This document shows, piece by piece, positions 1,960 through 29,991 of a stretch of 30,821 nt of DNA; within the stretch, counting starts at the first letter, position 1, and every line of letters begins with the position of its first letter. The DNA is from a virus (lineage: Duplodnaviria > Heunggongvirae > Uroviricota > Caudoviricetes). A program made the position numbers and the translations under genes. The stretch is from the IMG/VR virus record IMGVR_UViG_2713896904_000004; one strand, written 5' to 3'. Under the pieces are notes generated by a model, which searched no databases, was not told where the DNA came from, and worked only from the letters and a program-made list of their open reading frames with translations.

Positions 1960-2880
1960 ATGATGAATAATAAAGTCAGCTTCACTAACAGCAATAATCC
2001 AACCATCTCTTTGTCTGCTGTGATCTATTTCCCTCCCCAATTTGATGAAACCCGTCAGTATCCGGCAATTGTGGTATCTCACCCCGGTGGAGGCGTTAAA
2101 GAACAAACAGCCGGAACCTATGCCGAAAAACTGGCGGAAAAAGGATTTGTCACCATCGCTTATGACGCCTCTTATCAAGGTGAAAGTGGCGGCGAGCCGC
2201 GTCAGTTAGAAAACCCATACATTCGTACTGAAGACGTCAGTGCCGTAATTGATTACCTGACAACACTTTCTTATGTCGACAATGCCCGAATTGGTGCGAT
2301 GGGAATTTGTGCCGGTGCAGGATATACAGCCAATGCTGCAATTCAGGATCGCCGCATCAAGGCCATCGGTACCGTTAGTGCGGTCAATATTGGTTCGATG
2401 TTCCGCAATGGTTGGGAAAACAATGTGAAATCTATTGATGCTCTGCCACACATTGAAGCTGGCTCAAACGCCCGAACCAGCGATATTAGCAGCGGAGAAT
2501 ACGCCATTATGCCACTGGCGCCAATGAAGGAGGCCGATGCGCCGAACGAAGAACTGCGTCAGGCCTGGGAGTATTACCACACCTCTCGCGCGCAGTATCC
2601 AACAGCACCGGGTTACGCTACTTTGCGCAGCCTTAACCAGATGATTACCTATGATGCTTACCATATGGCGGAAGTGTACCTGACTCAGCCGATGCAGATT
2701 GTGGCGGGCAGTCTGGCAGGAAGTAAATGGATGAGTGACGACCTGTACGATCGAGCATCAAGTCAGGATAAACGCTATCACATTGTTGAAGGCGCTAACC
2801 ATATGGACCTCTATGACGGCAAAGCCTATGTGGCTGAAGCGATTTCAGTATTAGCTCCATTCTTTGAGGAAACTCTGTAA
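1960..2880 (+). CDS. Alpha/beta hydrolase, dienelactone-hydrolase-like (Cys nucleophile)
   Basis: ORF track 1948..2880. Start moved to ATG 1960 because GAGGAA at 1950-1955 is a Shine-Dalgarno for the ATGs at 1960/1963. Motifs HPGGG, a GICAG nucleophile elbow with Cys, and a C-terminal ANHMDLYD His/Asp fit a DLH-type Cys-His-Asp triad. Confidence 0.75.
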   Translation: MMNNKVSFTNSNNPTISLSAVIYFPPQFDETRQYPAIVVSHPGGGVKEQTAGTYAEKLAEKGFVTIAYDASYQGESGGEPRQLENPYIRTEDVSAVIDYLTTLSYVDNARIGAMGICAGAGYTANAAIQDRRIKAIGTVSAVNIGSMFRNGWENNVKSIDALPHIEAGSNARTSDISSGEYAIMPLAPMKEADAPNEELRQAWEYYHTSRAQYPTAPGYATLRSLNQMITYDAYHMAEVYLTQPMQIVAGSLAGSKWMSDDLYDRASSQDKRYHIVEGANHMDLYDGKAYVAEAISVLAPFFEETL

Positions 2881-2968
2881 ATACCGGGTTATCGTAGATA
2901 TCAAAACAGCATAGAAAATAGCCAGTTTTGGGTAAAGTTTTGGGGAAGATTTTACATCATCATAAAAC

Positions 2969-2991
2969 AACGGGCGTGTTATACGCCCGTT
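2969..2991. terminator. Bidirectional rho-independent terminator hairpin (AACGGGCGT-GTTAT-ACGCCCGTT); terminator of the icd fragment on the minus strand
   Basis: Perfect 9-bp GC-rich stem with 5-nt loop; on the minus strand it is followed by GTTTTATG, 24 nt after the icd-fragment stop. It also lies 89 nt after the hydrolase stop on the plus strand. Confidence 0.6.
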
Positions 2992-3014
2992 ATAATATTT
3001 AACACATGTGGTAA

Positions 3015-3179
3015 TTACATATTTTCGATGATCGCATCACCAAACTCTGAGCATTTCAGCAGCTTAGCGTCGTCCATCAGACGTTCGAAGTCATAGGTTA
3101 CGGTCTTGGCGTTGATTGCACCTTCCATACCTTTAACAATCAGGTCTGCAGCTTCAGTCCAGCCCATATGGCGCAGCAT
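3015..3179 (-). pseudogene. icd: 3' fragment of isocitrate dehydrogenase gene icd (54 codons plus stop), the displaced copy at the prophage attachment junction
   Basis: Minus-strand translation [54 protein letters not shown] matches the C-terminus of enterobacterial Icd. The reading frame is closed by an in-frame stop two codons upstream, so homology ends at about 3180. Same 165-bp size as icdC beside e14 in E. coli K-12. Confidence 0.85.
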
Positions 3180-3412
3180 TAGTTAGATAACTAAATCGTA
3201 ACTATTTGACATAGCAGCATAATTTTACTAATTTGCATATAACTCATTAGCTCTTAGCATTTCCATAACTCATTGATTATCAACATGTGTTTTTGAGTTT
3301 TGATAACCATTTTTAGCATAAAAATAGCAGTTAACATTTGCAGAAGTTAAGATCAGAGAAAATTTTTACCCTGTAGGGTATTACGTCTTAAATGTGACTT
3401 TAATAAACAATT

Positions 3413-4246
3413 TTATTTCTGTAATCGATTTATATTAACGTAAAGCATCTCGATTAGTTCTTTTGCATTTTTACTATAGTGCAATTCTCTATGGCAATTC
3501 GGACAAAGGGCAACACAGTTATCTGTTGTATCAGCACCACCTGAAGACAGGGGAATTACATGATGCACTTCCAAGTATGGGCTTCCATCATTTAAATAAA
3601 ACGGAGCATTTTTACCACAGTTTTCACATATACCTTTACTTTGCTGTAAAATCCAAGCTTTTACCATCGGATCTCGGACATAAACTTTTTGTAGTCTTTC
3701 TACCTCAACTGGTTTCCTGGAGCCCTCGGGCTGACTCAACGTTTTCTTAATTAATTTACTAACCCTCATATTCAGAAGCGATTCATCATCTGTAGGCTGA
3801 GAAAGCTCTGATAGTTCTCCACGTATTATAGACACCCAAAAACTGTCACTATAAATACCTGGAACATTTATCAATATTCGTTTCGTTCTATTGCCGGAAG
3901 GAATTTCCTTTCTCCCCGTACGACTAAAATAAGCCTGATAACCACACATCTTCAAGCGTATATCGCGGGGGCTATTACCAATCAAAGTAAAATATTCACC
4001 AGGATGGATTTTTCTTTCATCCAAAGAATGCATATGTTTTCTGACTGATGATGACGCCAGATATACTACGACTTGGGATACACCAGAATCAACCAACCGT
4101 TCAATGATATAATCAAGAGCGATATTGTAATCTTTGTTTCTGTCACCCGGCCCCCACGACTCAAGGATTAGACCATAAACACCATCCTCTTCACCTATCA
4201 AACACTCAGCTTTCAGTTCAATTCCATTATTATCAAAAACATGCAT
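3413..4246 (-). CDS. mcrA: McrA, type IV (modified-cytosine) restriction HNH endonuclease, 277 aa
   Basis: Full-length match by recall to e14 McrA, including the C-terminal HNH motif (CENCGKNAPFYLNDGSPYLEVHHVIPLSSGGADTTDNCVALCPNCHRELH). AT-rich gene at the prophage end beside pin, as in e14. Confidence 0.9.
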   Translation of the reverse strand: MHVFDNNGIELKAECLIGEEDGVYGLILESWGPGDRNKDYNIALDYIIERLVDSGVSQVVVYLASSSVRKHMHSLDERKIHPGEYFTLIGNSPRDIRLKMCGYQAYFSRTGRKEIPSGNRTKRILINVPGIYSDSFWVSIIRGELSELSQPTDDESLLNMRVSKLIKKTLSQPEGSRKPVEVERLQKVYVRDPMVKAWILQQSKGICENCGKNAPFYLNDGSPYLEVHHVIPLSSGGADTTDNCVALCPNCHRELHYSKNAKELIEMLYVNINRLQK

Positions 4247-4352
4247 AATATTAATCTTTAATCAATTTTTTACGACAATACTACTTTTATTGATAAAATT
4301 GCAACAAGTTGCTGTTGTTTTATTTTCTTTTGTACACAAAGTGACTTTAACT

Positions 4353-4907
4353 TTATTTATCCCCTGCAGGAAACATCTTATACAAAGTTGACACACCAAC
4401 ATCATAGATGATCGCCACCTTCTGGCGAGGAACTCCTGATGCAATTAATCGTCCGGCCTGTTCCCATTGTTCTGGTGTAAGTTTGGGACGACGTCCACCA
4501 ATTCGTCCCTGTGCGCGAGCAGCTTCCAGTCCAGCTTTTGTTCGTTCAACAATCAGTTCACGCTCCATTTCAGCCAGGGCACCCATCACATGAAAAAAAA
4601 AGCGCCCCATTGGGGTACTGGTATCAATTGAATCCGTCAGACTACGAAAGTTAATGCCTCGTTCGCGCAACTCCTCCACCAGCACGACAAGATGCCGCAT
4701 ACTGCGCCCCAGTCGGTCCAGTTTCCAGACCACCAGCGTGTCACCTGCCAATAATGTCCTGAGCAGTTTTTTCAGTCCTGGTCTGTCGGACTTAGTTCCA
4801 CTGATTTTATCCTCAAAAATCCGCTCACATCCCGCGCAGTTCAGTGCATTACGTTGCAAATCGGTGTTCTGGTCATTTGTTGACACGCGTACATAGCCAA
4901 TAAGCAT
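4353..4907 (-). CDS. pin: Serine recombinase, DNA invertase Pin (Gin/Hin/Pin family), 184 aa
   Basis: Starts MLIGYVRVSTNDQNTDLQ with the catalytic Ser-containing resolvase N-domain and a C-terminal HTH; the track ORF 4353..4913 has two extra N-terminal codons. Adjacent to the invertible segment. Confidence 0.9.
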   Translation of the reverse strand: MLIGYVRVSTNDQNTDLQRNALNCAGCERIFEDKISGTKSDRPGLKKLLRTLLAGDTLVVWKLDRLGRSMRHLVVLVEELRERGINFRSLTDSIDTSTPMGRFFFHVMGALAEMERELIVERTKAGLEAARAQGRIGGRRPKLTPEQWEQAGRLIASGVPRQKVAIIYDVGVSTLYKMFPAGDK

Positions 4908-4934
4908 GATCATCCCTCTGAATAAAAACCAGAG

Positions 4935-5324
4935 ATGATGCCAGTTAGCCGTTATTTCTGCATTTTCATAAACGTTGGTTTGGGAGAAGCGGCAAAACGG
5001 AATGTGGGAACAGGAGAAAATCAGAAACCAGATATGTCTGCATTTCCATCTGGCAAAAACTGGTTTCAGTTACCAAGTGGTCATATTGTTCAAATGTTTT
5101 CGATGAATGTTTATGGGGCGGACACTAACGGAACTACTGGTAATTTCCCTATTGCATTTCCTTCAGGTGCACTGGCTGTTAGTGCCTTATGGTCTGATGG
5201 CACATTAACGGCTGCTCCGACCTTTAAACTTATGGGGTACACGACAACAAGGACATCAGTAACCTTAAAAGTATCAACCGGAAATGGTTTGTATGGAACT
5301 ATGATTATCGCAATAGGAAGATAA
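4935..5324 (+). CDS. Alternative tail-fibre C-terminal exon (silent orientation; would fuse to the constant N-terminal part after inversion)
   Basis: ORF in the invertible segment; NVGLGEAAK at its 5' end is encoded by the crossover site, and it is followed by its own tfa gene. Functional coding starts at the crossover (4963), not at the track ATG. Confidence 0.6.
   Translation: MMPVSRYFCIFINVGLGEAAKRNVGTGENQKPDMSAFPSGKNWFQLPSGHIVQMFSMNVYGADTNGTTGNFPIAFPSGALAVSALWSDGTLTAAPTFKLMGYTTTRTSVTLKVSTGNGLYGTMIIAIGR
4963..4988. repeat. 26-bp Pin crossover site, left (TTTTCATAAACGTTGGTTTGGGAGAA), inverted repeat partner of 6823..6848
   Basis: Its reverse complement TTCTCCCAAACCAACGTTTATGAAAA matches the site at 6823..6848 at 21 of 26 positions and resembles gix/hix sites. 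Confidence 0.8.
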
Positions 5325-5325
5325 T

Positions 5326-5769
5326 ATGAATCAATATATTTATTCCCCTTCGGAAAATGCATTTTATGCTGTTAATTTAAAAAATACTTATGAAGTAAAT
5401 GGAACATGGCCCGCTGATGCATTAGATATTCCTGATAACATTTTTGTAAAATATATAGCGGAACCGCCACAAGGGAAAATCCGAGTTGCAGGGGTAAATG
5501 GTTTTCCCACATGGGCTGAAATACCTCAACCATCACATGAAGAACTTATTCAACAGGCAGAATCAGAAAGAAAATTATTGCTTAATCAGGCCAACGAACA
5601 CATGAACAGTAAGCAATGGCCCGGTAAAGCCGCTATTGGTCGTCTGAAAGGTGAGGAACTGGCGCAATATAATTTGTGGCTGGATTATCTGGACGCACTG
5701 GAACTGGTCGATACTTCCAGTGCTCCAGATATTGAATGGCCTACGCCTCCGGCAGTTCAGGCCAGATGA
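5326..5769 (+). CDS. Tail fibre assembly protein (Tfa/Mu U-like), partner of the silent tail-fibre exon
   Basis: 147 aa, immediately downstream of the alternative fibre exon inside the invertible segment; its C-terminal DTSSAPDIEWPTPP mirrors the convergent tfa C-terminus DTSTAPDVIWPELP. Confidence 0.75.
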   Translation: MNQYIYSPSENAFYAVNLKNTYEVNGTWPADALDIPDNIFVKYIAEPPQGKIRVAGVNGFPTWAEIPQPSHEELIQQAESERKLLLNQANEHMNSKQWPGKAAIGRLKGEELAQYNLWLDYLDALELVDTSSAPDIEWPTPPAVQAR

Positions 5770-6343
5770 CATCCGGCGCGGTGCTGGTATCTGTTACCGT
5801 CACCGCGTCAATGTAATCCAGCACGGCGTTAAGTCGGGTTGTTTCTGCCTGCGTCAACTTCCGTCCGGCCTGCGATTTCAGTTGAATCAGACTAATGGAA
5901 GCCATTGCAGTATCAATCAGTGACTGACGTTGTGCTTCTGCCGCGTCTACTGCGGCGCTATGCTGTGCCTCGGTATCCGTCACCCATTTCTCACCATCCC
6001 ATTTATCGTATGGCGTTAACGGGGCGATAGTGGTTGTTTTTTCGGGGTAATCACCCGGAGTTGTGATTTCTTTGGCGTCTCCCGTTTCGGTGTTATAGAC
6101 GATTTCACCGCGATGGTCTGGCACATATTCCCATGAGTTTAAATCCATCGAACGGCAGATAGCATAACCAGCCTTATATGTGCCTGGTGCATCTAAACAG
6201 GAACATGCAGGAATACCGACACCCACAGCAAGATATTCATTTGAAGTGGAAATATATTCCCGGGTTTCACTATCATAGTTATATACTGTAATATTCCCTG
6301 CTTTGGTGGCGATAATCTCGCTATTTAATATGGCGTTATCCAT
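5741..6343 (-). CDS. Tail fibre assembly protein (TfaE-like, 200 aa), partner of the expressed tail-fibre variant
   Basis: Directly downstream of the tail-fibre gene with a 1-nt stop/start overlap, inside the invertible segment; same 200-aa size as e14 TfaE. Confidence 0.8.
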   Translation of the reverse strand: MDNAILNSEIIATKAGNITVYNYDSETREYISTSNEYLAVGVGIPACSCLDAPGTYKAGYAICRSMDLNSWEYVPDHRGEIVYNTETGDAKEITTPGDYPEKTTTIAPLTPYDKWDGEKWVTDTEAQHSAAVDAAEAQRQSLIDTAMASISLIQLKSQAGRKLTQAETTRLNAVLDYIDAVTVTDTSTAPDVIWPELPEA

Positions 6344-21751: not shown

Positions 21752-23485
21752 TTAAAGCGAGCGGATCCCATAGGACTCAATGTGGTCAGACAGCGTGTCT
21801 TCTTTCTCGTACAGCATGGCTCTGCCAACCGCCATAATCAGCGCAACTGCACCGTCAATTTTGTTTTCCGCCTGCTCTTTGACGGGCTTCACCACATCAT
21901 CGTTACCCGGAATAGTTTTGCCGACCACGTTGCCGATACACCAGGTCATGATGGGATTGCCATCATGATGAAAGCGCCCCGATTCAATTGCCGCTTCCAG
22001 CTCTTTCATCGGGTCGGACATGTTGGTGTAGTTCTGAATGATAGTGATGGGGTTCAGGTCTTCATCAGCAAGGTCATGTGACAACCCGGTCGCCCCGAAG
22101 GGGTCGATGGGTGACTCACTGACCGGGCTGATTTTGTTCGCCGCTTTGGCCTCCTCGAGGATGTAGCGATAATCCACCTCCGCACCATCGGTAACGGTCA
22201 GAACGCCCATTTCCACCCATTTCTGAAAGCGTTCGGCTGTCCGTCGATCTTCATTTTTCTCGACGCTGTACACCGTGTCATACGGTACCCAGAAACGCGG
22301 GGCCACACTGTAGTAATGCGTTTTACCGTCAATCTCGCGGGTATAAAGTCGCGCCATGCTGTTCATATCCAGCTTACGCGCCAGGTCAAAGGCCAGAATG
22401 CACGGCTGCCCCTCGAACTGCTCAAGGGTCAGTGATTTATCCTCGCAGCTCTGCCAGCTCACCAGGTTGAAATACGCCGAACGCGCCGACACCCAGATAT
22501 TGAGGTGTTTTGTTTTAAAGACGTTTGCCAGACGGGCGTTATTTTTCGCACGCTGCTGCTGACTTAACAAAAATTCGCGATAAACCGACACGCCAATATT
22601 TGGATTGGCTTTTTCCAGCACCTGCGGGTCGGTCCAGTCGTCACCTTCATCAACGGTATAGATGATCCCGAACAGTTCATCGTTAGGCACCGAGCCGTTG
22701 AGCATCTCGATGACTTCCCGCCGCTTGTCGTAGCACGGCCCCTCAATGTTGTACCCGGCGGTGGTGATGGCCCACATCAGTGGCTGACGTCGCGCCCCCA
22801 TCCCGGTAAGCATCGTGGTGTAAAGCGCATCTGTGGCGTGCTCGTGATATTCATCCACCACCGCACAGTGGGGTGATGAACCATCACCGGGGTTACCGAT
22901 CAGCGGTTCAAAACGCGCACCATCCTCCGGACGGTTCATGTTTGAGGCGTTAACCTCAATCCCGAACGCTTCCGTCAGCATGGGTGTGCGTTTACACATC
23001 AGTCTTGCCGGACGAAAGACTTCCCATGCCTGTTTCTCCGTCGTGGCACCGGAATACACTTCCGCGCCGAACTCGTTATCACAGGCAAAACAATACAGGG
23101 CGACACCGGCAGAGATTGCCGATTTGCCGTTCTTACGGGGGATTTCGGTATACACCTCACGGAAGCGGCGCAGCCGGGAGCCTTTATTGACCCAGCCAAA
23201 CGCGCAGCAGATCACAAAGAGCTGCCACGGCTCCAGCGTGATGGGCATCCTCTTGAATGCCCACTCACCCTTGGTGTGCGGCAACAGCTGAATAAATTTG
23301 GCGGCCCGTTCAGCCAGGTCCTTGTCGAAGCGGTAACGAAACGACTTACTTTTTTCCGCCATCAGGTCATCAAGATGGCGCTGGCAGGCCTGAATCACAA
23401 ACTGGCAGGCCACAATCTTTCCGCGCACGACATCACGGGCATACTGATTGGCAGCATTTACGTTGGGGTAAGATTTCCGGCTCAT
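21752..23485 (-). CDS. Terminase large subunit, 577 aa
   Basis: Size and position (ATGA overlap with the small subunit gene, followed by portal); N-terminal ATPase and C-terminal nuclease-length domains. Confidence 0.9.
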
Positions 23486-23985
23486 GATTCGATAATTTTC
23501 AGAAACGGGTTAGTGGCTTTCTTCTGCCCCGCCAGGCCAATCAGACGCTGGCGGCTGCTGGGGTCGAGTCCGAGCATTGCCCCCGTACTGCTCATCTCGG
23601 ACTCCTGTTCTTTTTTGGCGGTCAGCTCCGGATTTTTGACCATACCGCCCATTGCACCGGTGATGGTGTTGCCCTGTCTGGCAATATTTTTCACGGCACG
23701 TCGCCAGAACTCATAGGCCACACACCACCGCTCAAGCACCGCGAGGTCAGTCACGCACAGCAGGCCCTGACCGCAGAGTTCTTTGGTTGTCAGTTGCCAC
23801 ATGATCGTGGCGAGAGGGAGATCTTCTTCAGCGAACCACTCCGGTGGCTCAACACCTTTGATGGGCGTAAAAACAGGTTCATCTTTATTCAGGGCTCGCT
23901 TGCCGGGGTTTCCGGCCAGCGCCTTGCGCGCCGTTGGCTTGGGGCGACGCCCGGAACGCCCCGCCGTTCCAGCCATATGCGGCAC
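23482..23985 (-). CDS. Terminase small subunit (P27-family-like), 167 aa
   Basis: Basic N-terminus [29 protein letters not shown] typical of P27-type small terminases; directly upstream of the large subunit. Confidence 0.8.
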
Positions 23986-24101: not shown

Positions 24102-24452
24102 TCACTTCAACCGTTCACGGGCCGTCTTCGCCTTATGACACGGCCAGCACAGACTCTGCAGATTACAGTCGGCATCAGTGCCGCCATGCGCTTTAGGGAT
24201 GATGTGGTCAACGGTTTTCGCCTCGCGCACCACACCAGCACGCAGGCACAACTGGCACAGGCCTTTGTCACGCTTGAGCACACGTTCACGGATAACATCC
24301 CATTTCGAACCATAACCGCGCTGGTGTCGGGACTGGCCTGGCTTGTATTGCTTCCAGCCTTCGCTTTTGTGGCTTTCGCAGTAGCCTGACGGGTCAGTAG
24401 TGGTATGGCGGCAGCCGCGAACACGGCAGGCTTTTGGGGTTCGTAGGGGCAT
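24102..24452 (-). CDS. HNH endonuclease (terminase-associated), 116 aa
   Basis: Cys/His-rich: CRVRGCRHTT, CESH, and HIIPKAHGGTDADCNLQSLCWPCH. Start chosen at ATG 24452, which has an AAGAGGA Shine-Dalgarno; the track ORF extends to 24515. Confidence 0.8.
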   Translation of the reverse strand: MPLRTPKACRVRGCRHTTTDPSGYCESHKSEGWKQYKPGQSRHQRGYGSKWDVIRERVLKRDKGLCQLCLRAGVVREAKTVDHIIPKAHGGTDADCNLQSLCWPCHKAKTARERLK

Positions 24453-24602
24453 TGCATAATCCTCTTGGATGGTTCGCGTACGATACGTGGCATCCTTCTC
24501 AGAATCGAATCGCACTCCATTCCGGTTTTGCCATAAACGATCTTTTATGCTTCGCTGGATGTAGTTGATAGTTGTTGAAACTCAATGAACAGGAGTTCAC
24601 AA

Positions 24603-24938
24603 ATGAATAGTTATGAATGGGAATGGCTTTTGAACAAAGATGACACCCTATACTTTTTCCCCGTAGGCCATTCTGTAGAAGGTAATTACAAAATTCACTT
24701 TGAGTTGAGCGGTAGTTGTAACCTTAGAGTCTCAGATGCTGAATGGCATGGTAAACCTGTACTGCTGTTCGAATACTTCGATGAAGATGATGACCGCCCT
24801 GCAATAATCGAAATATTAGAAACAACCACTACAACTGTGGAGGCGATGATCGCACATCTGAATAGTATCGATAGTATTTACCATGAACCGATTTACAAAG
24901 CTGTTTACGAGTGGGCTGTAAAGTTTTTCTATCGATGA
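24603..24938 (+). CDS. Hypothetical small acidic protein (111 aa), cargo gene 1 of the Rz-cos island
   Basis: ATG 24603 is preceded by AGGAG at 24591..24595 with 7-nt spacing (track start 24585). AT-rich, opposite strand to phage late genes. No family recognised. Confidence 0.6.
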   Translation: MNSYEWEWLLNKDDTLYFFPVGHSVEGNYKIHFELSGSCNLRVSDAEWHGKPVLLFEYFDEDDDRPAIIEILETTTTTVEAMIAHLNSIDSIYHEPIYKAVYEWAVKFFYR

Positions 24939-24981
24939 TACTTCGTTATCTTTCTGGTATTCACAATACCTTTACATATTA

Positions 24982-25608
24982 ATGACATGCCAGCACAATA
25001 CTGTCACTTACAACCGTTCGGATTACCTAGAGAAAAGTATGATTCAGGATTTACTGATCGAAGCAATTAGTCACGATAGGATGCATAAAAAGTTAAATGA
25101 ACTGAATGGCTACTTCTACAATCGCAAACATGAAACACAAATACGTGATGAGTTAGTTGTTATACTCAATCAAATCAGCACACTAACTGCTTTAAGTGAG
25201 CATCCAAAACTCGGTATCGGCGCTGTTGACATATCACTTTATAACCAGTCGATATTAACGTCTGAACATAATGGCAATGTTGCAACCATCGAGATAAAAC
25301 ACCATTACCCAAAGGATTTACTTTATCGGCAAGTTCAAGAAGACATCATTTCCGATATTTCAAGAGTAATAGTTTCACCAACTACACATTTTATCCATAT
25401 AATCCAGCAAAGAACCAGGATTAATACTCCTTCTTTTGGCCAAGTGAAATTCCTTGAACGTGATGCAAGTGATATCAGCACTTATGTGCAATACCTTGAA
25501 GAGCTAAGTTCATTTCCCAGTAATTTTCATAAAAAAAGTATATGTATTGAGGTACTTGGTGAAATTATGTCGACATATACCTTTAACGTATATTCATTTG
25601 ACAACTGA
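24982..25608 (+). CDS. Hypothetical protein (208 aa), cargo gene 2 of the Rz-cos island; possible PD-(D/E)xK-like nuclease motif
   Basis: AT-rich ORF. GIGAVDISLY followed 21 residues later by TIEIKHH gives a hydrophobic-D ... E-x-K pattern. Alternative start at ATG 25039 (MIQDLL). Confidence 0.55.
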   Translation: MTCQHNTVTYNRSDYLEKSMIQDLLIEAISHDRMHKKLNELNGYFYNRKHETQIRDELVVILNQISTLTALSEHPKLGIGAVDISLYNQSILTSEHNGNVATIEIKHHYPKDLLYRQVQEDIISDISRVIVSPTTHFIHIIQQRTRINTPSFGQVKFLERDASDISTYVQYLEELSSFPSNFHKKSICIEVLGEIMSTYTFNVYSFDN

Positions 25609-25629
25609 TCAATTTGACAATTTTATTGC

Positions 25630-25887
25630 TTAATGGTTAGTTCTCTCTGCATCTATTTTACGAATATCAGCTTTATCCCGATTGCAGTTAGCCAGTGCAG
25701 ACAACAGACTCACATTCAGCTCCAGGCTGGCACCATACGTCAGAGGATTTGGTATGAACGGTACAGGTGTTTCAGAAGTCAGACTAGTCGGTAATGTTGT
25801 AGCCGGAGTGCTCACGTAAACTGTCCGCGTACTTCCGCAACCGCTCAGCAGCGGCAGCAGGCACAAGGCGTGCAGCACAATCATCAT
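25630..25887 (-). CDS. Rz1-like outer-membrane spanin lipoprotein (o-spanin), overlapping the 3' end of Rz in another frame
   Basis: Signal peptide with lipobox MMIVLHALCLLPLLSGC, then a Pro/Thr-rich mature region; starts inside the Rz-like gene and runs past its stop. Confidence 0.6.
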   Translation of the reverse strand: MMIVLHALCLLPLLSGCGSTRTVYVSTPATTLPTSLTSETPVPFIPNPLTYGASLELNVSLLSALANCNRDKADIRKIDAERTNH

Positions 25888-26164
25888 CCGCAACAGCCAC
25901 TTTGATATCTTTCTGGGTTCTCTGTGACTCCAGTGCGATCTGCTGTTTTGCATGCTGGTTAACCTCTATAACTGTATTGACGATTTGCAGTGATTGCAGG
26001 ACGTTACGGGTAATGGCTGTTGCAGATTCAGCATTTTGTACAGCCTCATCAGCACGTTTCTTTTCGTGCTGATATTTGCTGTAGTAGTGGTTGGCAGACC
26101 AGATGAAAGAACCGATGACAGTAAAGATGAATGCAGAGATAGCCAGCTTATAGCTCAACTTCAT
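25784..26164 (-). CDS. Rz-like inner-membrane spanin (i-spanin), 126 aa
   Basis: N-terminal transmembrane helix LAISAFIFTVIGSFIW followed by a charged coiled-coil-like region; immediately downstream of the endolysin with overlap. Confidence 0.7.
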   Translation of the reverse strand: MKLSYKLAISAFIFTVIGSFIWSANHYYSKYQHEKKRADEAVQNAESATAITRNVLQSLQIVNTVIEVNQHAKQQIALESQRTQKDIKVAVADDDCAARLVPAAAAERLRKYADSLREHSGYNITD

Positions 26165-26624
26165 TTACCACCCCACCAGCCTCTTTAAACCGGGAAATCA
26201 GGTCACCGATTTTATGTTCATACTGACCGTAACCTGCACCAGGTAACGACGCCCAGATATTGCTGCAACGATCGATAGCCTGACGAATATCGCCGCGATC
26301 AATCATCGGTAAAGCGCCACGCTCTTTAATCTGCTGTAATGCAACAGCATCCTGGCTTTTAGGAGAGAAGTCTGTCAGCCCTAACTGCTTGCGGTAAGCA
26401 TCCCACCAGCGCGAAAGAAGTTGATAACGGCCTGCAGCTGTTGATTTGAGTTTCGGGTTTAGCGTGACAAGCTTGCGAGGGTGATCGGAGTAATCAGTGA
26501 AGAGTTCTCCACCGACAATAACATCATAACCGTGGTTACGTGTCGGTTGTCGCCCGTTATCCGTTCCTTCTGACCATGCCACCATATCGAGGAAAGCTTT
26601 ACGCTGGGAATTTAGTACCTGCAT
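26148..26624 (-). CDS. Endolysin, lambda R-like lytic transglycosylase, 158 aa
   Basis: Near-identical by recall to lambda R (NQRKAFLDM-AWSEGTDNGRQ-TRNHGYDVIVGGELFTDYSDHPRKLVTLNPKLKST-AGRYQLLSRWWDAYRKQLGL-DFSPKSQDAVALQQIKERGALPMIDRGDIRQAIDRCSNIWASLPGAGYGQ) and the same length. Confidence 0.88.
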   Translation of the reverse strand: MQVLNSQRKAFLDMVAWSEGTDNGRQPTRNHGYDVIVGGELFTDYSDHPRKLVTLNPKLKSTAAGRYQLLSRWWDAYRKQLGLTDFSPKSQDAVALQQIKERGALPMIDRGDIRQAIDRCSNIWASLPGAGYGQYEHKIGDLISRFKEAGGVVNEVEL

Positions 26625-26627
26625 AAA

Positions 26628-26954
26628 TTACTCCTTAGAGCCACCAAACTTATTACCGATTACTCTCATTGCAGCCCCACGAATAGCATCGACCCCGATC
26701 AGCCCAACGCCGCCACCAATGGCAACAGAAAGAGATTTAGGCCATCCGACATACTCAAGAGCGGATGCAAAAGTCAGCGTCAGAGCACCACAGAGCAAAA
26801 TCTCGAGCGTTTTTCGTTTCCAGCCACCACCACCGCCAAAATAGGCAATGCGCAAGCCAGCCATAACGATCGACATAATCACTGCGCCCAGCGGTGTGTC
26901 TCCACGCCACCAGCTCTGGACCAACTCCAGCCAGGTATTTGGGTTATGAGGCAT
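26628..26954 (-). CDS. Holin (class I-like, three predicted membrane helices), 108 aa
   Basis: Immediately upstream of the endolysin with a 3-nt gap; three hydrophobic helices and a charged C-terminus. Not lambda S by sequence. Confidence 0.7.
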   Translation of the reverse strand: MPHNPNTWLELVQSWWRGDTPLGAVIMSIVMAGLRIAYFGGGGGWKRKTLEILLCGALTLTFASALEYVGWPKSLSVAIGGGVGLIGVDAIRGAAMRVIGNKFGGSKE

Positions 26955-27245: not shown

Positions 27246-28421
27246 ATGGATATAACTTGTTTAGAATGTGGCAATGTTCTTGACGACCCAACTGTAGCTT
27301 GCGATAAATGCGGCGCCACGCCTCATGTTGTAGTGCTGGGCAAACAATCGTACTTTCCTATTGGTGCTGTAACAGCAAATCTTGAAAAAAATGATTCAAG
27401 AGCATTTGATTATCGATTAGGTGAAGTTTGGGATCTAAAAAATGAAGTCACATCTGAATTCATAACCAGAATTGAGAAAAAATTTAGCCGAAAAAACAAA
27501 TTTCATAACTTCCTAGACTCAGATCACAACCCTTCATCCATTCCTACGATCCTAAAAAAATACATTAATAAAAATAATGAATTCATTGATTTATCTAGAG
27601 CTATAATAGAGAAGCTTAAACATAATGCTAATAACGAATCGAGAGTTGCCCAACTTCAGGGGGGGAGCGTTGTTTTCATCCACTATAAGTCTACCGAACC
27701 AGAGGATTTGGGAAAACTTCTAATCGTAATGGTTGATAAACAAAGCGCCTATGACTTTGATTCGGATAAGTTGACCCCAACAAGATTAAATCCAATTAAT
27801 ACCGATGCCTTACGGCAGGCTGCGATGTTCGATTTAACTTTATTCGAAGCCAGTTATCCAGAAAACAAGGGTGACTCATATGTACATTTCTTGCAAGGTA
27901 AATCTAAAAGCGATTTTTTCAAAGACTCATTAGGTTGCCGACATGATTCGGACAATAAAAGAAGCATTCAGCAATTATTCAGTGCTATAGATATTTTTGC
28001 TAGTAAAAACTCACTCGGTCGTGTACTGCGTGATACTATTGACAATGAAGTTAAATCCTTACTGGAAAAAAAATCAAAAGATAAATACGGAAATAAGTCC
28101 GTTAAGATAGAGGATATTTCAAAAATAATTGACTCATGCCTGACTGATTCACACAAATGTAAGGGAACGTTTGTCGATTTTGTTAATCTTAATGGTTTCC
28201 AGATTGATCCTCAATTTGAACCAACTCCTAAAGCAGCTGAAAGCGCGCTTACAATTGAAGTGGCAGATAACGACAATAATTTTAAGTTGAAAATAATGCG
28301 TGGAGCTATTGGAGACGAAAAGTCAAATAAGCCTGTAATTCTCACTGACAACAAATGCGAAATTGTGATAAAATTGAGTCAGGCAAATTATGATGAACTC
28401 AAAAGATATAGAGACAGCTAA
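27246..28421 (+). CDS. Cargo protein A: N-terminal Zn-ribbon (CxxC-x10-CxxC) protein with possible NA37/YejK-like nucleoid-associated domain, 391 aa
   Basis: Clean ATG start; AT-rich; Cys5, Cys8, Cys19, Cys22; blocks GGSVVFIHY, LLIVMVD, NPINTDALRQAAMFDLT and YVHFLQGKSKSDFFKDSLG resemble, from memory, conserved blocks of NdpA/YejK. No hydrophobic helices, no Walker A. Confidence 0.75.
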   Translation: MDITCLECGNVLDDPTVACDKCGATPHVVVLGKQSYFPIGAVTANLEKNDSRAFDYRLGEVWDLKNEVTSEFITRIEKKFSRKNKFHNFLDSDHNPSSIPTILKKYINKNNEFIDLSRAIIEKLKHNANNESRVAQLQGGSVVFIHYKSTEPEDLGKLLIVMVDKQSAYDFDSDKLTPTRLNPINTDALRQAAMFDLTLFEASYPENKGDSYVHFLQGKSKSDFFKDSLGCRHDSDNKRSIQQLFSAIDIFASKNSLGRVLRDTIDNEVKSLLEKKSKDKYGNKSVKIEDISKIIDSCLTDSHKCKGTFVDFVNLNGFQIDPQFEPTPKAAESALTIEVADNDNNFKLKIMRGAIGDEKSNKPVILTDNKCEIVIKLSQANYDELKRYRDS

Positions 28422-28423
28422 TA

Positions 28424-29638
28424 ATGACAATTGCTGATGACTTATCAAGATTAGCGCAGATTATTAACGGAGCCTCAAGCAGAGTTGAGGGCTACTACAC
28501 TGTCATAAGTCTTGAAGAAAGCATTGTTATTGTAAATAGTTCTGAAATAATTAGACTGTTACAATCTATAGGTTATAAAAAGGCAACAAACTGCATCGAA
28601 AATAATGAAATTTGGCTAGATCGCCAAGCTTCATCTTGGGATGACGCTATAATTTATGAGAATGTTGAGTCTTTTTGGTCTAGAGTAAACACCCAAAACG
28701 CTCTTCCGAAAAATTATATCATCGGAACGCCGTTAATACTCCCTACTTCTAAGAATGAAAGCATCGAAAAAATCCATATTTTCTTTATGTGGAAAGATAT
28801 CCTTTCATTAATTGCTGATCATCATAACAGTGACTGCTCTGTCTTATTTTTCACCAATGAAGACAAAAGTTATACAGTCGAACTCACGCATTTTTTACAA
28901 TATAGCGAGATTAATCGCTTATCGAACTCGTCTCTTAAATATGAAATTATAAAGGAGCTTCTCGACACAATAAAAATCAATGATTTACACAAAAGCGAGC
29001 GCAAGCTCGTTATACGTTCAGCCATAAACGAAGTATTTAAAGCAAATGGTACATTCAATTTCTTTGACTTGCTTAACTCTACTGAACTCGTCAGAAAAAA
29101 ATATGATGAACTATATGAGATTTACACAAAGAGGTTTTCTGTAAATAAAATTCTTAACGAACTCGATGAGAAAAATCTTGAGTTCACGAGTAAAATTAAC
29201 GAATTCATATCATCTAATCAGACAAAAGCATTGACTATTCCCGGTGCATTAATAGCAGCTGGTGGCTTAGTGAAGGCTAATGAAACAACCGAAGCAATAT
29301 TGATTATCGCAGGACTTTGGATGATAAAAAAAGTCAATTACATTTCTATTGAGATATTCAATGAAACATTCGACAACTTACGTTCTCGAGTGGAGTCCGC
29401 TTTCGATAAGTATTTAAAGTTTGAAGAAAATAAAGAAATCAAAGATAATGCAGATAGTATTAAGAGTAGCATTACAGGTTTGATTGATAAAGCTAAAAAA
29501 AGGATGAGAACTGTTAAATATCTCGCATCAGCCATGTTTTATGGAGGCCTTATTTACGTTGGATATAAACAGTTCCCAGTCTTTTTTGAAAAATCGGCAG
29601 TAAATCTATTTTATTTTTTATGCCATACTATAAGCTAA
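28424..29638 (+). CDS. Cargo protein B: 404-aa protein with C-terminal hydrophobic segments (putative membrane effector), translationally coupled to A
   Basis: ATG 2 nt after the stop of A; hydrophobic stretches at residues 269-301 (ALTIPGALIAAGGLV / AILIIAGLWMI) and 366-388 (YLASAMFYGGLIYVGYKQFPVFF); no catalytic motif recognised; 3' end overlaps the Q gene on the other strand. Confidence 0.75.
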   Translation: MTIADDLSRLAQIINGASSRVEGYYTVISLEESIVIVNSSEIIRLLQSIGYKKATNCIENNEIWLDRQASSWDDAIIYENVESFWSRVNTQNALPKNYIIGTPLILPTSKNESIEKIHIFFMWKDILSLIADHHNSDCSVLFFTNEDKSYTVELTHFLQYSEINRLSNSSLKYEIIKELLDTIKINDLHKSERKLVIRSAINEVFKANGTFNFFDLLNSTELVRKKYDELYEIYTKRFSVNKILNELDEKNLEFTSKINEFISSNQTKALTIPGALIAAGGLVKANETTEAILIIAGLWMIKKVNYISIEIFNETFDNLRSRVESAFDKYLKFEENKEIKDNADSIKSSITGLIDKAKKRMRTVKYLASAMFYGGLIYVGYKQFPVFFEKSAVNLFYFLCHTIS

Positions 29639-29974
29639 CATTGCTAAACAGCCGTCAACAAACCCCATGGCAGTCTGCAATTCCTTCCTAATTGTGCCAT
29701 CTGAACATCTTCTCTTCTTGGCAATAGTGCGTAATGAGATACCAATAACAAAGTGAGCTATGAGCAGCTCATATTCCTCTGGTTTATACTTTCGCAACCG
29801 AGCCACACAACCGTCTATCATGATGCCTTCATCATCATCACACTGGAGACGTGACTTTTTACCGTGTGGTAAAAGTCCCTTGAAACCAGCCGCTATCGGC
29901 TGCCAGTCCACACCACTATTTTCTGCTGCAGCCCATGCTCCCCAGCGGTCCAATACTTCATACATATCACGCAT
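29618..29974 (-). CDS. Late-gene antiterminator Q (QuuD-like family), 118 aa from ATG 29974
   Basis: MRDMYEVLDRWGAWAA...WQPIAAGFKGLL...CDDDEGIMIDGC...CSDG matches, by recall, DLP12 QuuD (MRDIQMVLERWGAWAA...SIAAGFKGLI...). Located upstream of the lysis cassette. The track ORF has 5 extra N-terminal codons. Confidence 0.7.
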   Translation of the reverse strand: MRDMYEVLDRWGAWAAAENSGVDWQPIAAGFKGLLPHGKKSRLQCDDDEGIMIDGCVARLRKYKPEEYELLIAHFVIGISLRTIAKKRRCSDGTIRKELQTAMGFVDGCLAMLAYSMA

Positions 29975-29991
29975 CAACTTTCTCCACAAAA

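Follow-up and report, generated by a model that had tools for sequence, protein, structure and literature searches.

In phage lambda, the gene bor, whose product is a lipoprotein, lies after Rz and runs opposite to the late operon. PD-(D/E)XK is the commonest domain among newly validated Escherichia coli defence systems (PMC13092281), and solitary restriction genes are known, with explanations that vary (PMC3488263). Here, we analysed a cargo locus at the bor position of IMG/VR record IMGVR_UViG_2713896904_000004 (the window, i.e., the whole stretch of 30,821 nucleotides [nt]), whose source is an intact E. coli e14-like lambdoid prophage with its late half in view. The locus contains gene C, encoding an acidic protein of 111 amino acids (aa), and gene D, encoding a 189-aa protein that is very probably a PD-(D/E)XK nuclease. 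Our best reading of the whole, to which we assign a probability of roughly 55%, is a hotspot with two independent modules, in which D is a solitary anti-phage nuclease and C is a separate moron.

The two genes occupy a variable block of ~1.2 kb (positions 24454–25652) in the interval from an HNH endonuclease gene to the spanin gene Rz1. The block was delimited by homology break and composition: similarity to sibling E. coli prophages ended at about 24453 and restarted at 25653–25670, and the GC content of the block was 0.373 (gene C, 0.396; gene D, 0.351), compared with 0.578 for the HNH gene, 0.583 for the small-terminase gene terS, and 0.478 for Rz. These data agreed with the initial annotation, made from the letters of the window, which had described two plus-strand open reading frames (ORFs) between the spanin genes and the HNH gene as an opposite-strand cargo island at the bor position, with a composition unlike that of its flanks. 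Both ORFs (24585/24603–24938 and 24982–25608) were confirmed, as was the foreign composition (GC 0.37 vs. 0.55–0.58).

The content of this slot varied widely. It was empty in the sibling prophage of strain C10 (locus L106), with 26 nt from HNH to Rz1, whereas other sibling E. coli prophages carried a gene for a 169-aa hypothetical protein (L107, 760–1269, minus strand), a GrlR-like regulator (L108, 749–1069, minus strand), or a plus-strand pair encoding a 182-aa protein and a ClpP-like serine protease (L109, 829–2016), which is possibly a two-gene system. Further cargo comprised a 151-aa membrane-type protein (L034, 5369–5824, minus strand) and a 77–85-aa ORF (MGNVNIYAGLVNGDLMPIIE...; L002, 7677–7910, plus strand). 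Homologues of D and C from other genera were found in the same post-lysis, pre-terS slot, again on the opposite strand and flanked by unrelated terminases and lysis cassettes; those of D included residents of unrelated lambdoid prophages of Enterobacter and Yersinia. The slot-bearing phages differed in their terminases (P27/Terminase_4 vs. Terminase_2) or had ParB/Mom-type genes instead. Because so many unrelated genes use the slot, it is a general cargo ("moron") hotspot, extending from the end of the lysis cassette to HNH/terS and transcribed against the late operon. The post-spanin, pre-terS position of e14/HK97-like and other lambdoid prophages is thereby marked as a site of cargo exchange.

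The extent of the two genes was then defined. The initial annotation gave D as a 208-aa ORF, and the frame is indeed open from 24982, but this is an over-extension; translation almost certainly begins with the ATG at 25039, which yields 189 aa (25039–25608, plus strand; PHROG 12494). All homologues begin with MIQ or MIN at this position, the purine-rich ribosome-binding site 6–9 nt before the ATG is conserved in Enterobacter, Yersinia, Citrobacter, and other loci whereas the 19 additional codons show no conservation as coding sequence, and both RefSeq/PGAP and PHROG 12494 give 189 aa. The annotation of the D start is corrected accordingly, and the residues previously numbered D83, E104, and K106 therefore become D64, E85, and K87. 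The start of C at 24603, 7 nt after an AGGAG ribosome-binding site read in the sequence (24591–24595, plus strand), was the one already proposed and is also used by RefSeq and PHROG 14397 (111 aa; 24603–24938, plus strand). The 100-nt spacer between the genes (24939–25038, plus strand) contains the ribosome-binding site of D and a weak promoter-like sequence, TTTACA-17-CACAAT (24971–24999), no better than chance. The reading frame was kept in D homologues at 50–72% identity and in C homologues at 63–77%; the nonsynonymous rate (dN) of homologue pairs was 0.17–0.48 with a saturated synonymous rate (dS), and the single computable pair gave a dS of 1.3 and a dN/dS of 0.18. Since the frame is kept across diverged homologues and dN is far below dS, C and D are, as judged from sequence comparison, both real coding genes under purifying selection.

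Comparison of the D family pointed to a nuclease. In an alignment of 32 members with identities down to 19%, only K30, E32, D64, E85, and K87 were invariant, and N28, R36, E54, P56, D93, and D106 were near-invariant. The AlphaFold (AF2) model of D, built on 14 sequences (predicted local distance difference test score, 83.9; predicted template modelling score, 0.84), comprised helix 29–46, strands 49–53, 65–69, and 80–89, helix 97–107, and strand 117–127, which together form an alpha-beta-beta-beta-alpha-beta core. D64 was placed at the head of strand 2 and E85-x-K87 on strand 3, and the proposed catalytic set consists of E32 from the first helix, D64 (codon 25228–25230), E85 (25291–25293), and K87 (25297–25299). 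The PD-(D/E)XK-like core that had been suspected in the long ORF was thus supported, both by its invariant acidic and lysine residues in the alignment and by the canonical, nuclease-like fold of the model. One family member (P0090) exceeded the Pfam threshold for PDDEXK_4 (24.1 vs. 22.3 bits), and two members matched HSDR_N at 1.4e-4; the matches of family members to HSDR_N, PDDEXK_9, and DpnII-MboI were all below threshold. Neither C nor D had a significant match in Pfam, PADLOC, NCBIfam, or among PDB sequences, and searches of PHROGs with both returned only families of unknown function. No additional domain for reading modified bases was recognised in D, as its 189-aa model consists of a single domain and no Pfam domain was matched, although a reader built into that domain is conceivable. 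We consider the restriction-endonuclease-like fold and the active-site assignment highly likely; catalysis by D is a prediction.

D homologues were of limited distribution. Among 1.84 billion proteins, they amounted to 42 representatives (50% clustering) at E ≤ 0.001, and the family comprised 27 clusters at 90% identity, in Enterobacterales only; a profile search recovered 74 D-like proteins, including some from Flavobacteriaceae, Salinimicrobium, and Acinetobacter. A scan of species-representative genomes yielded two loci only, and a plasmid search yielded a single truncated match. D was present in 80 of the 5426 complete E. coli genomes, full-length in 75 of them, and C was full-length in all 79 genomes with C. 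Searches with the accession and peptides of D gave no match in the literature or supplements, and D was absent from the supplementary files of PMC13092281. In Acinetobacter halotolerans (L012, 6001–6936) and clusters P0096–P0114, a D-like domain was fused to a C-terminal DUF6508 in proteins of ~310 aa; no literature was found on DUF6508.

D was unaccompanied by a modification enzyme. No methyltransferase gene was present in the island or in the rest of the window examined, in the lysis-to-integrase half (early region) or the late part read of a 99.8%-identical relative, or next to D in the Enterobacter loci. At the Yersinia D locus, a D12-class methylase gene was located ~3.3 kb away, in another slot. 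As no examined locus had a cognate methyltransferase of the type II kind adjacent to its D homologue, the family looks solitary by design, and D, having no linked methyltransferase, is therefore not part of a type II restriction–modification (R-M) system.

Several neighbourhoods of D homologues contained defence genes. In another group of prophages, a complete Lamassu system (LmuA and LmuB) was found directly beside D homologues of ~50% identity in the same slot (L057 and L059–L061), with scores of 5e-237 for LmuB and 2e-148 for LmuA (with DUF4297), for example at 2823–5723 (minus strand) of L060, where the slot arrangement was read on the post-lysis side only. More distant homologues, on Bacteroidota-type contigs, were located within, or immediately ahead of, type I R-M operons (L009, 6790–12651; L110, 1149–12074; L113, 6760–10394), which also carried the stand-alone nucleases PDDEXK_4, PDDEXK_13/REase-ARP, and GmrSD_N. 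Others were found among WYL, cREC, or PDDEXK_4 genes (L010) and near a cytosine-methyltransferase gene (L111). The window prophage itself fills other cargo slots with established defences, namely DS-1 and mcrA.

D would accordingly be classed as a solitary restriction-like or effector-type defence gene: made from the prophage, it would most likely cleave other DNA that invades the cell or nucleic acid brought in by superinfecting phages. We infer its nuclease activity, its expression in the lysogen, and its anti-phage role. Because it has neither a methyltransferase nor a sensor domain, D would need an undescribed means of discriminating self from invader. It might spare its host through a type IV-like requirement for a modification or structure found only in the invader, through resident methylation, or through latency until infection; discrimination may depend on methylation laid down by other enzymes of the host (Dam/Dcm or type I), or on a DNA modification or structure peculiar to phages. 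Should D prove to be an active defence nuclease, a very small, uncatalogued single-gene system would be added to the arsenal of E. coli prophages, and the question would arise of how a 189-aa restriction-fold enzyme with neither methyltransferase nor sensor avoids killing its host. Tentatively, and leaning against it ourselves, we also raise the broader idea that D is the first of an uncatalogued family of minimal (~190 aa), stand-alone, restriction-fold single-gene defences that recur beside Lamassu in prophage cargo slots and inside type I R-M operons.

Several results weigh against our best reading or add nothing to it. The defence association consists of a handful of neighbourhoods, with no statistical survey, and the other cargo genes of the E. 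coli slot matched no known defence family in PADLOC or NCBIfam; only the ClpP-like and GrlR-like proteins had NCBIfam relatives, and neither relative is a defence family. D itself had no match in Pfam, NCBIfam (noise only), or PADLOC (none at E ≤ 1), a Foldseek search of its model against the PDB gave nothing significant (best E, 0.085, unrelated folds), and hhalign found no match between the D family and three neighbouring PDDEXK_4 proteins. A promoter and terminator scan found nothing above chance, and expression in the lysogen is presumed. Moreover, an orphan restriction enzyme that is active all the time would be expected to kill its host, and a control mechanism has to be assumed. Finally, D is fairly often inactivated: an IS3-family insertion element follows codon 38 in L067–L069, where C is intact, D is frameshifted in L039, and a 38-aa D stub (cluster member P0123) was found on 97 contigs, against 285 contigs with the exact intact D. 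This inactivation could reflect a fitness cost, dispensability, or clonal spread of a dead allele.

The relationship between C and D separates our reading from the first of its rivals, in which the two genes form a toxin–antitoxin or abortive-infection unit, with D as a toxic nuclease and C as its inhibitor, immunity protein, or DNA mimic. The genes are neighbours on one strand, 100 nt apart, and are jointly present in about 75–79 of the 5426 complete E. coli genomes. C is strongly acidic, as initially annotated; its isoelectric point is 4.56 and its net charge −12, and its EYFDEDDDRP segment, including the DEDDD loop, is nearly invariant in homologues. Some lineages have a decayed D next to an intact C, and a toxin would likewise be expected to disappear before its antitoxin. 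However, this joint presence represents one recent lineage: in a search of all fetched loci, joint occurrence of C and D was limited to E. coli contigs with both at least 96% identical to the window. All 26 diverged loci with a full-length D (50–70% identity; Enterobacter, Yersinia, Citrobacter, and viral contigs) were without C, and all eight diverged C loci (63–77% identity) were without D. Even within E. coli, two loci (L034 and L035) had a 96%-identical D and no C, the 151-aa membrane-type ORF standing in its place on the other strand. D was preceded by an unrelated 77-aa ORF in Enterobacter and by nothing in Yersinia. C was alone on its strand in L098, L100, and L103, preceded by the same small ORF (85 aa) in L103 and followed by the 151-aa ORF in L100.

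Because C and D occur apart, with varied ORF neighbours, in diverged loci, the modules are shuffled independently. Intact D also persists in the absence of C in many hosts (E. coli, Enterobacter, Yersinia, Citrobacter, and other genera), which fits poorly with a toxin dependent on C. The role of inhibitor, immunity protein, or DNA mimic suggested for C in the initial annotation is not upheld by this distribution, and C resembled no known DNA-mimic or immunity fold. We therefore regard a functional C/D pair as improbable. C is a small acidic beta-sheet/helix protein and a separate moron; C and D are independently acquired single-gene modules, and the fact that they are neighbours in a single lineage does not count as evidence for a two-gene system. 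The ~100-aa ORFs upstream of the distant D homologues in L009, L110, and L113 were considered as relatives of C, and were unrelated by inspection of their translations. In two of these three loci, the small upstream protein consisted of three repeats of NGKVELRKESGTIIRTI.

The sequences preceding the two genes were consistent with separate acquisition. Upstream of C, the window retains 5′-terminal sequence from a foreign small-terminase gene (24499–24534, minus strand; CCGGTTTTGCCAT at 24522–24534), a dead remnant of 11 codons that reads MAKPEWSAIRF and then a stop. In the C-only prophages L096–L101, the same sequence was found 67–68 nt upstream of C; in L098 and L100, whose ORFs were read, it was the live terS start (MAKPDW...), 68 nt from C. 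A similar terS-start junction preceded D in D-only loci. Each cassette thus seems to have been imported together with its own terS-proximal junction, which again separates C from D. These data suggest recombination at the terS start as the route by which cargo cassettes are swapped, and hint that this junction is a recurrent recombination point for cargo exchange between phages. In the window, a degenerate copy of the junction may precede D. The sequence GCCATGTATAATCC, conserved upstream of D in other genera, was considered as a strong extended −10 promoter and rejected, as it is the reverse complement of the terS start codon and ribosome-binding site.

The same junction bears on a second alternative, in which D is a free-standing homing endonuclease, a selfish element that brings its host no benefit and spreads by cleaving genomes without D close to the terS/lysis junction. 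PD-(D/E)XK homing enzymes exist, D is small, AT-rich, intergenic, and sporadic at one fixed site next to essential packaging genes, and the short terS 5′ fragment travels with the cassettes as co-conversion tracts do. Nevertheless, the flanks (terS family and lysis cassettes) are wholly different between occurrences, so that a common target is not evident; the distant homologues reside not in phages but on chromosomes, within type I R-M operons and defence islands; and the slot, being used by many unrelated genes, behaves as a general cargo site. Homing is accordingly an unlikely explanation.

Little credence is likewise given to a function of D in the lytic cycle, whether as a structure-specific or recombination nuclease (Hjc-like resolvase), an anti-defence factor, or a degrader of host DNA. 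Several accessory nucleases are known from lambdoid phages, and no promoter could be assigned to D. D is nonetheless oriented against the late operon and missing from most sibling prophages, and neither C nor D had a tblastn match in any of 50,697 deposited phage genomes; the prophage family already encodes RusA, and the chromosomal homologues of D lie beside R-M, Lamassu, and WYL genes. Highly implausible, finally, is the view that D is a decaying or inert restriction remnant that lost its methyltransferase, with C as a neutral hitch-hiker and neither functional now: many of the solitary restriction genes in genomes represent relics or partial genes (Ershova et al., 2012; PMC3488263) and D is disrupted by insertion elements or frameshifts in several lineages, but no family member departs from the putative catalytic residues, dN is much lower than dS, at least six Enterobacterales genera and distant phyla retain a full-length D, and the family, which has no adjacent cognate methyltransferase, looks solitary rather than bereft. 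The hotspot with a solitary anti-phage nuclease and a separate moron hence remains our preferred reading.

The setting of the locus is that of an e14 relative. The late genes are on the minus strand, in the order Q (29618–29989), holin (26628–26954), lysozyme (26148–26624), Rz/Rz1, HNH, terS, terL, and head and tail genes. The spanin genes that end the lysis cassette (Rz1/LysC, 25630–25893; Rz, 25784–26164) were assigned from ORFs and the RefSeq annotation of the 99.8%-identical locus. On the packaging side lie the HNH endonuclease gene (24102–24452; Pfam HNH, 7.7e-15), terS (23482–23985; Terminase_4, 2.4e-21, and the RefSeq annotation of the relative), and the large-terminase gene terL (21752–23485; RefSeq annotation of the relative), all on the minus strand. 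At the end of the window are mcrA (3413–4246, minus strand; prophage end), encoding a type IV, 5-methylcytosine-specific HNH endonuclease and 98.9% identical to the e14 copy of K-12, an adjoining Pin/Hin-type DNA invertase gene (4353–4913, minus strand), and invertible segments for tail fibre and tail-fibre assembly (4935–6343). Because of this Pin-type invertase, the invertible tail-fibre segments, and mcrA, the prophage is identified as an intact relative of e14; ymfK, ymfL, ymfT, and ymfR were found in its annotated relatives. To the left of ~2900, host sequence begins, with genes for a LysR regulator and an alpha/beta hydrolase.

A second AT-rich island, between Q and holin, contains the DS-1 system on the plus strand (27246–28421 and 28424–29638; NCBIfam). 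Its first gene (NF053868, 2.5e-135) encodes a nucleoid-associated protein that is YejK-like and carries a zinc ribbon at its N-terminus, and its second encodes the partner protein (NF053869, 2.5e-112); a PADLOC 2.0 search gave no detection of either. DS-1 was experimentally validated as an anti-phage system in the DefensePredictor study (PMC13092281). One prophage thus holds three separate accessory loci, mcrA, DS-1, and C/D.

The C/D block shares with lambda bor its position after Rz/Rz1 and before cos and the packaging genes, its orientation against the late operon, and its foreign composition. C and D differ from bor in having no homology to Bor: neither had a match to a Bor family in Pfam, if Pfam holds one, and no signal peptide or lipobox was seen by inspection at the N-termini of C (MNSYEWEW...) or D (MIQDLLIE...).

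With EcoRV-like type II restriction endonucleases (R.SwaI, 5tgq; BglI, 1dmu; MspI, 1sa3; ThaI, 3ndh; EcoRV, 1eo3; HincII; and NlaIV), D shares the predicted core, the acidic residue of helix 1, the Asp that starts strand 2, and the (D/E)-x-K of strand 3, and it is similar in size (~190–260 aa). Unlike these enzymes, it has no linked methyltransferase and is carried as a prophage moron. In lacking a cognate methyltransferase and yet being tolerated by its host, D resembles solitary and modification-dependent restriction endonucleases such as McrA, Mrr, and DpnI (survey, PMC3488263). McrA, however, although carried by the same prophage in another slot, is an HNH enzyme unrelated to D, and type IV and IIM enzymes differ from D in that D has no recognisable modification-reading domain and is predicted to be a single domain.

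Hitch-hikers of the PrrC type in type I R-M operons offer another parallel, as the distant D homologues are likewise located in or upstream of hsdM-hsdS-hsdR; no hsd operon lies near D in the window, in contrast. PrrC itself, which cleaves anticodons and has an ABC-ATPase domain, shows no relation to D in sequence or fold. A further parallel is offered by the PD-(D/E)XK DS systems of DefensePredictor (PMC13092281), which, like D, are accessory and prophage-borne in E. coli, have an EcoRI/restriction-endonuclease-like core, and occur in diverse surroundings; D differs from them in having no match to NCBIfam, whose library holds DS-1 models. D is thus nothing categorically new, but an uncatalogued, putative addition to the well-known class of prophage-borne PD-(D/E)XK accessory nucleases.

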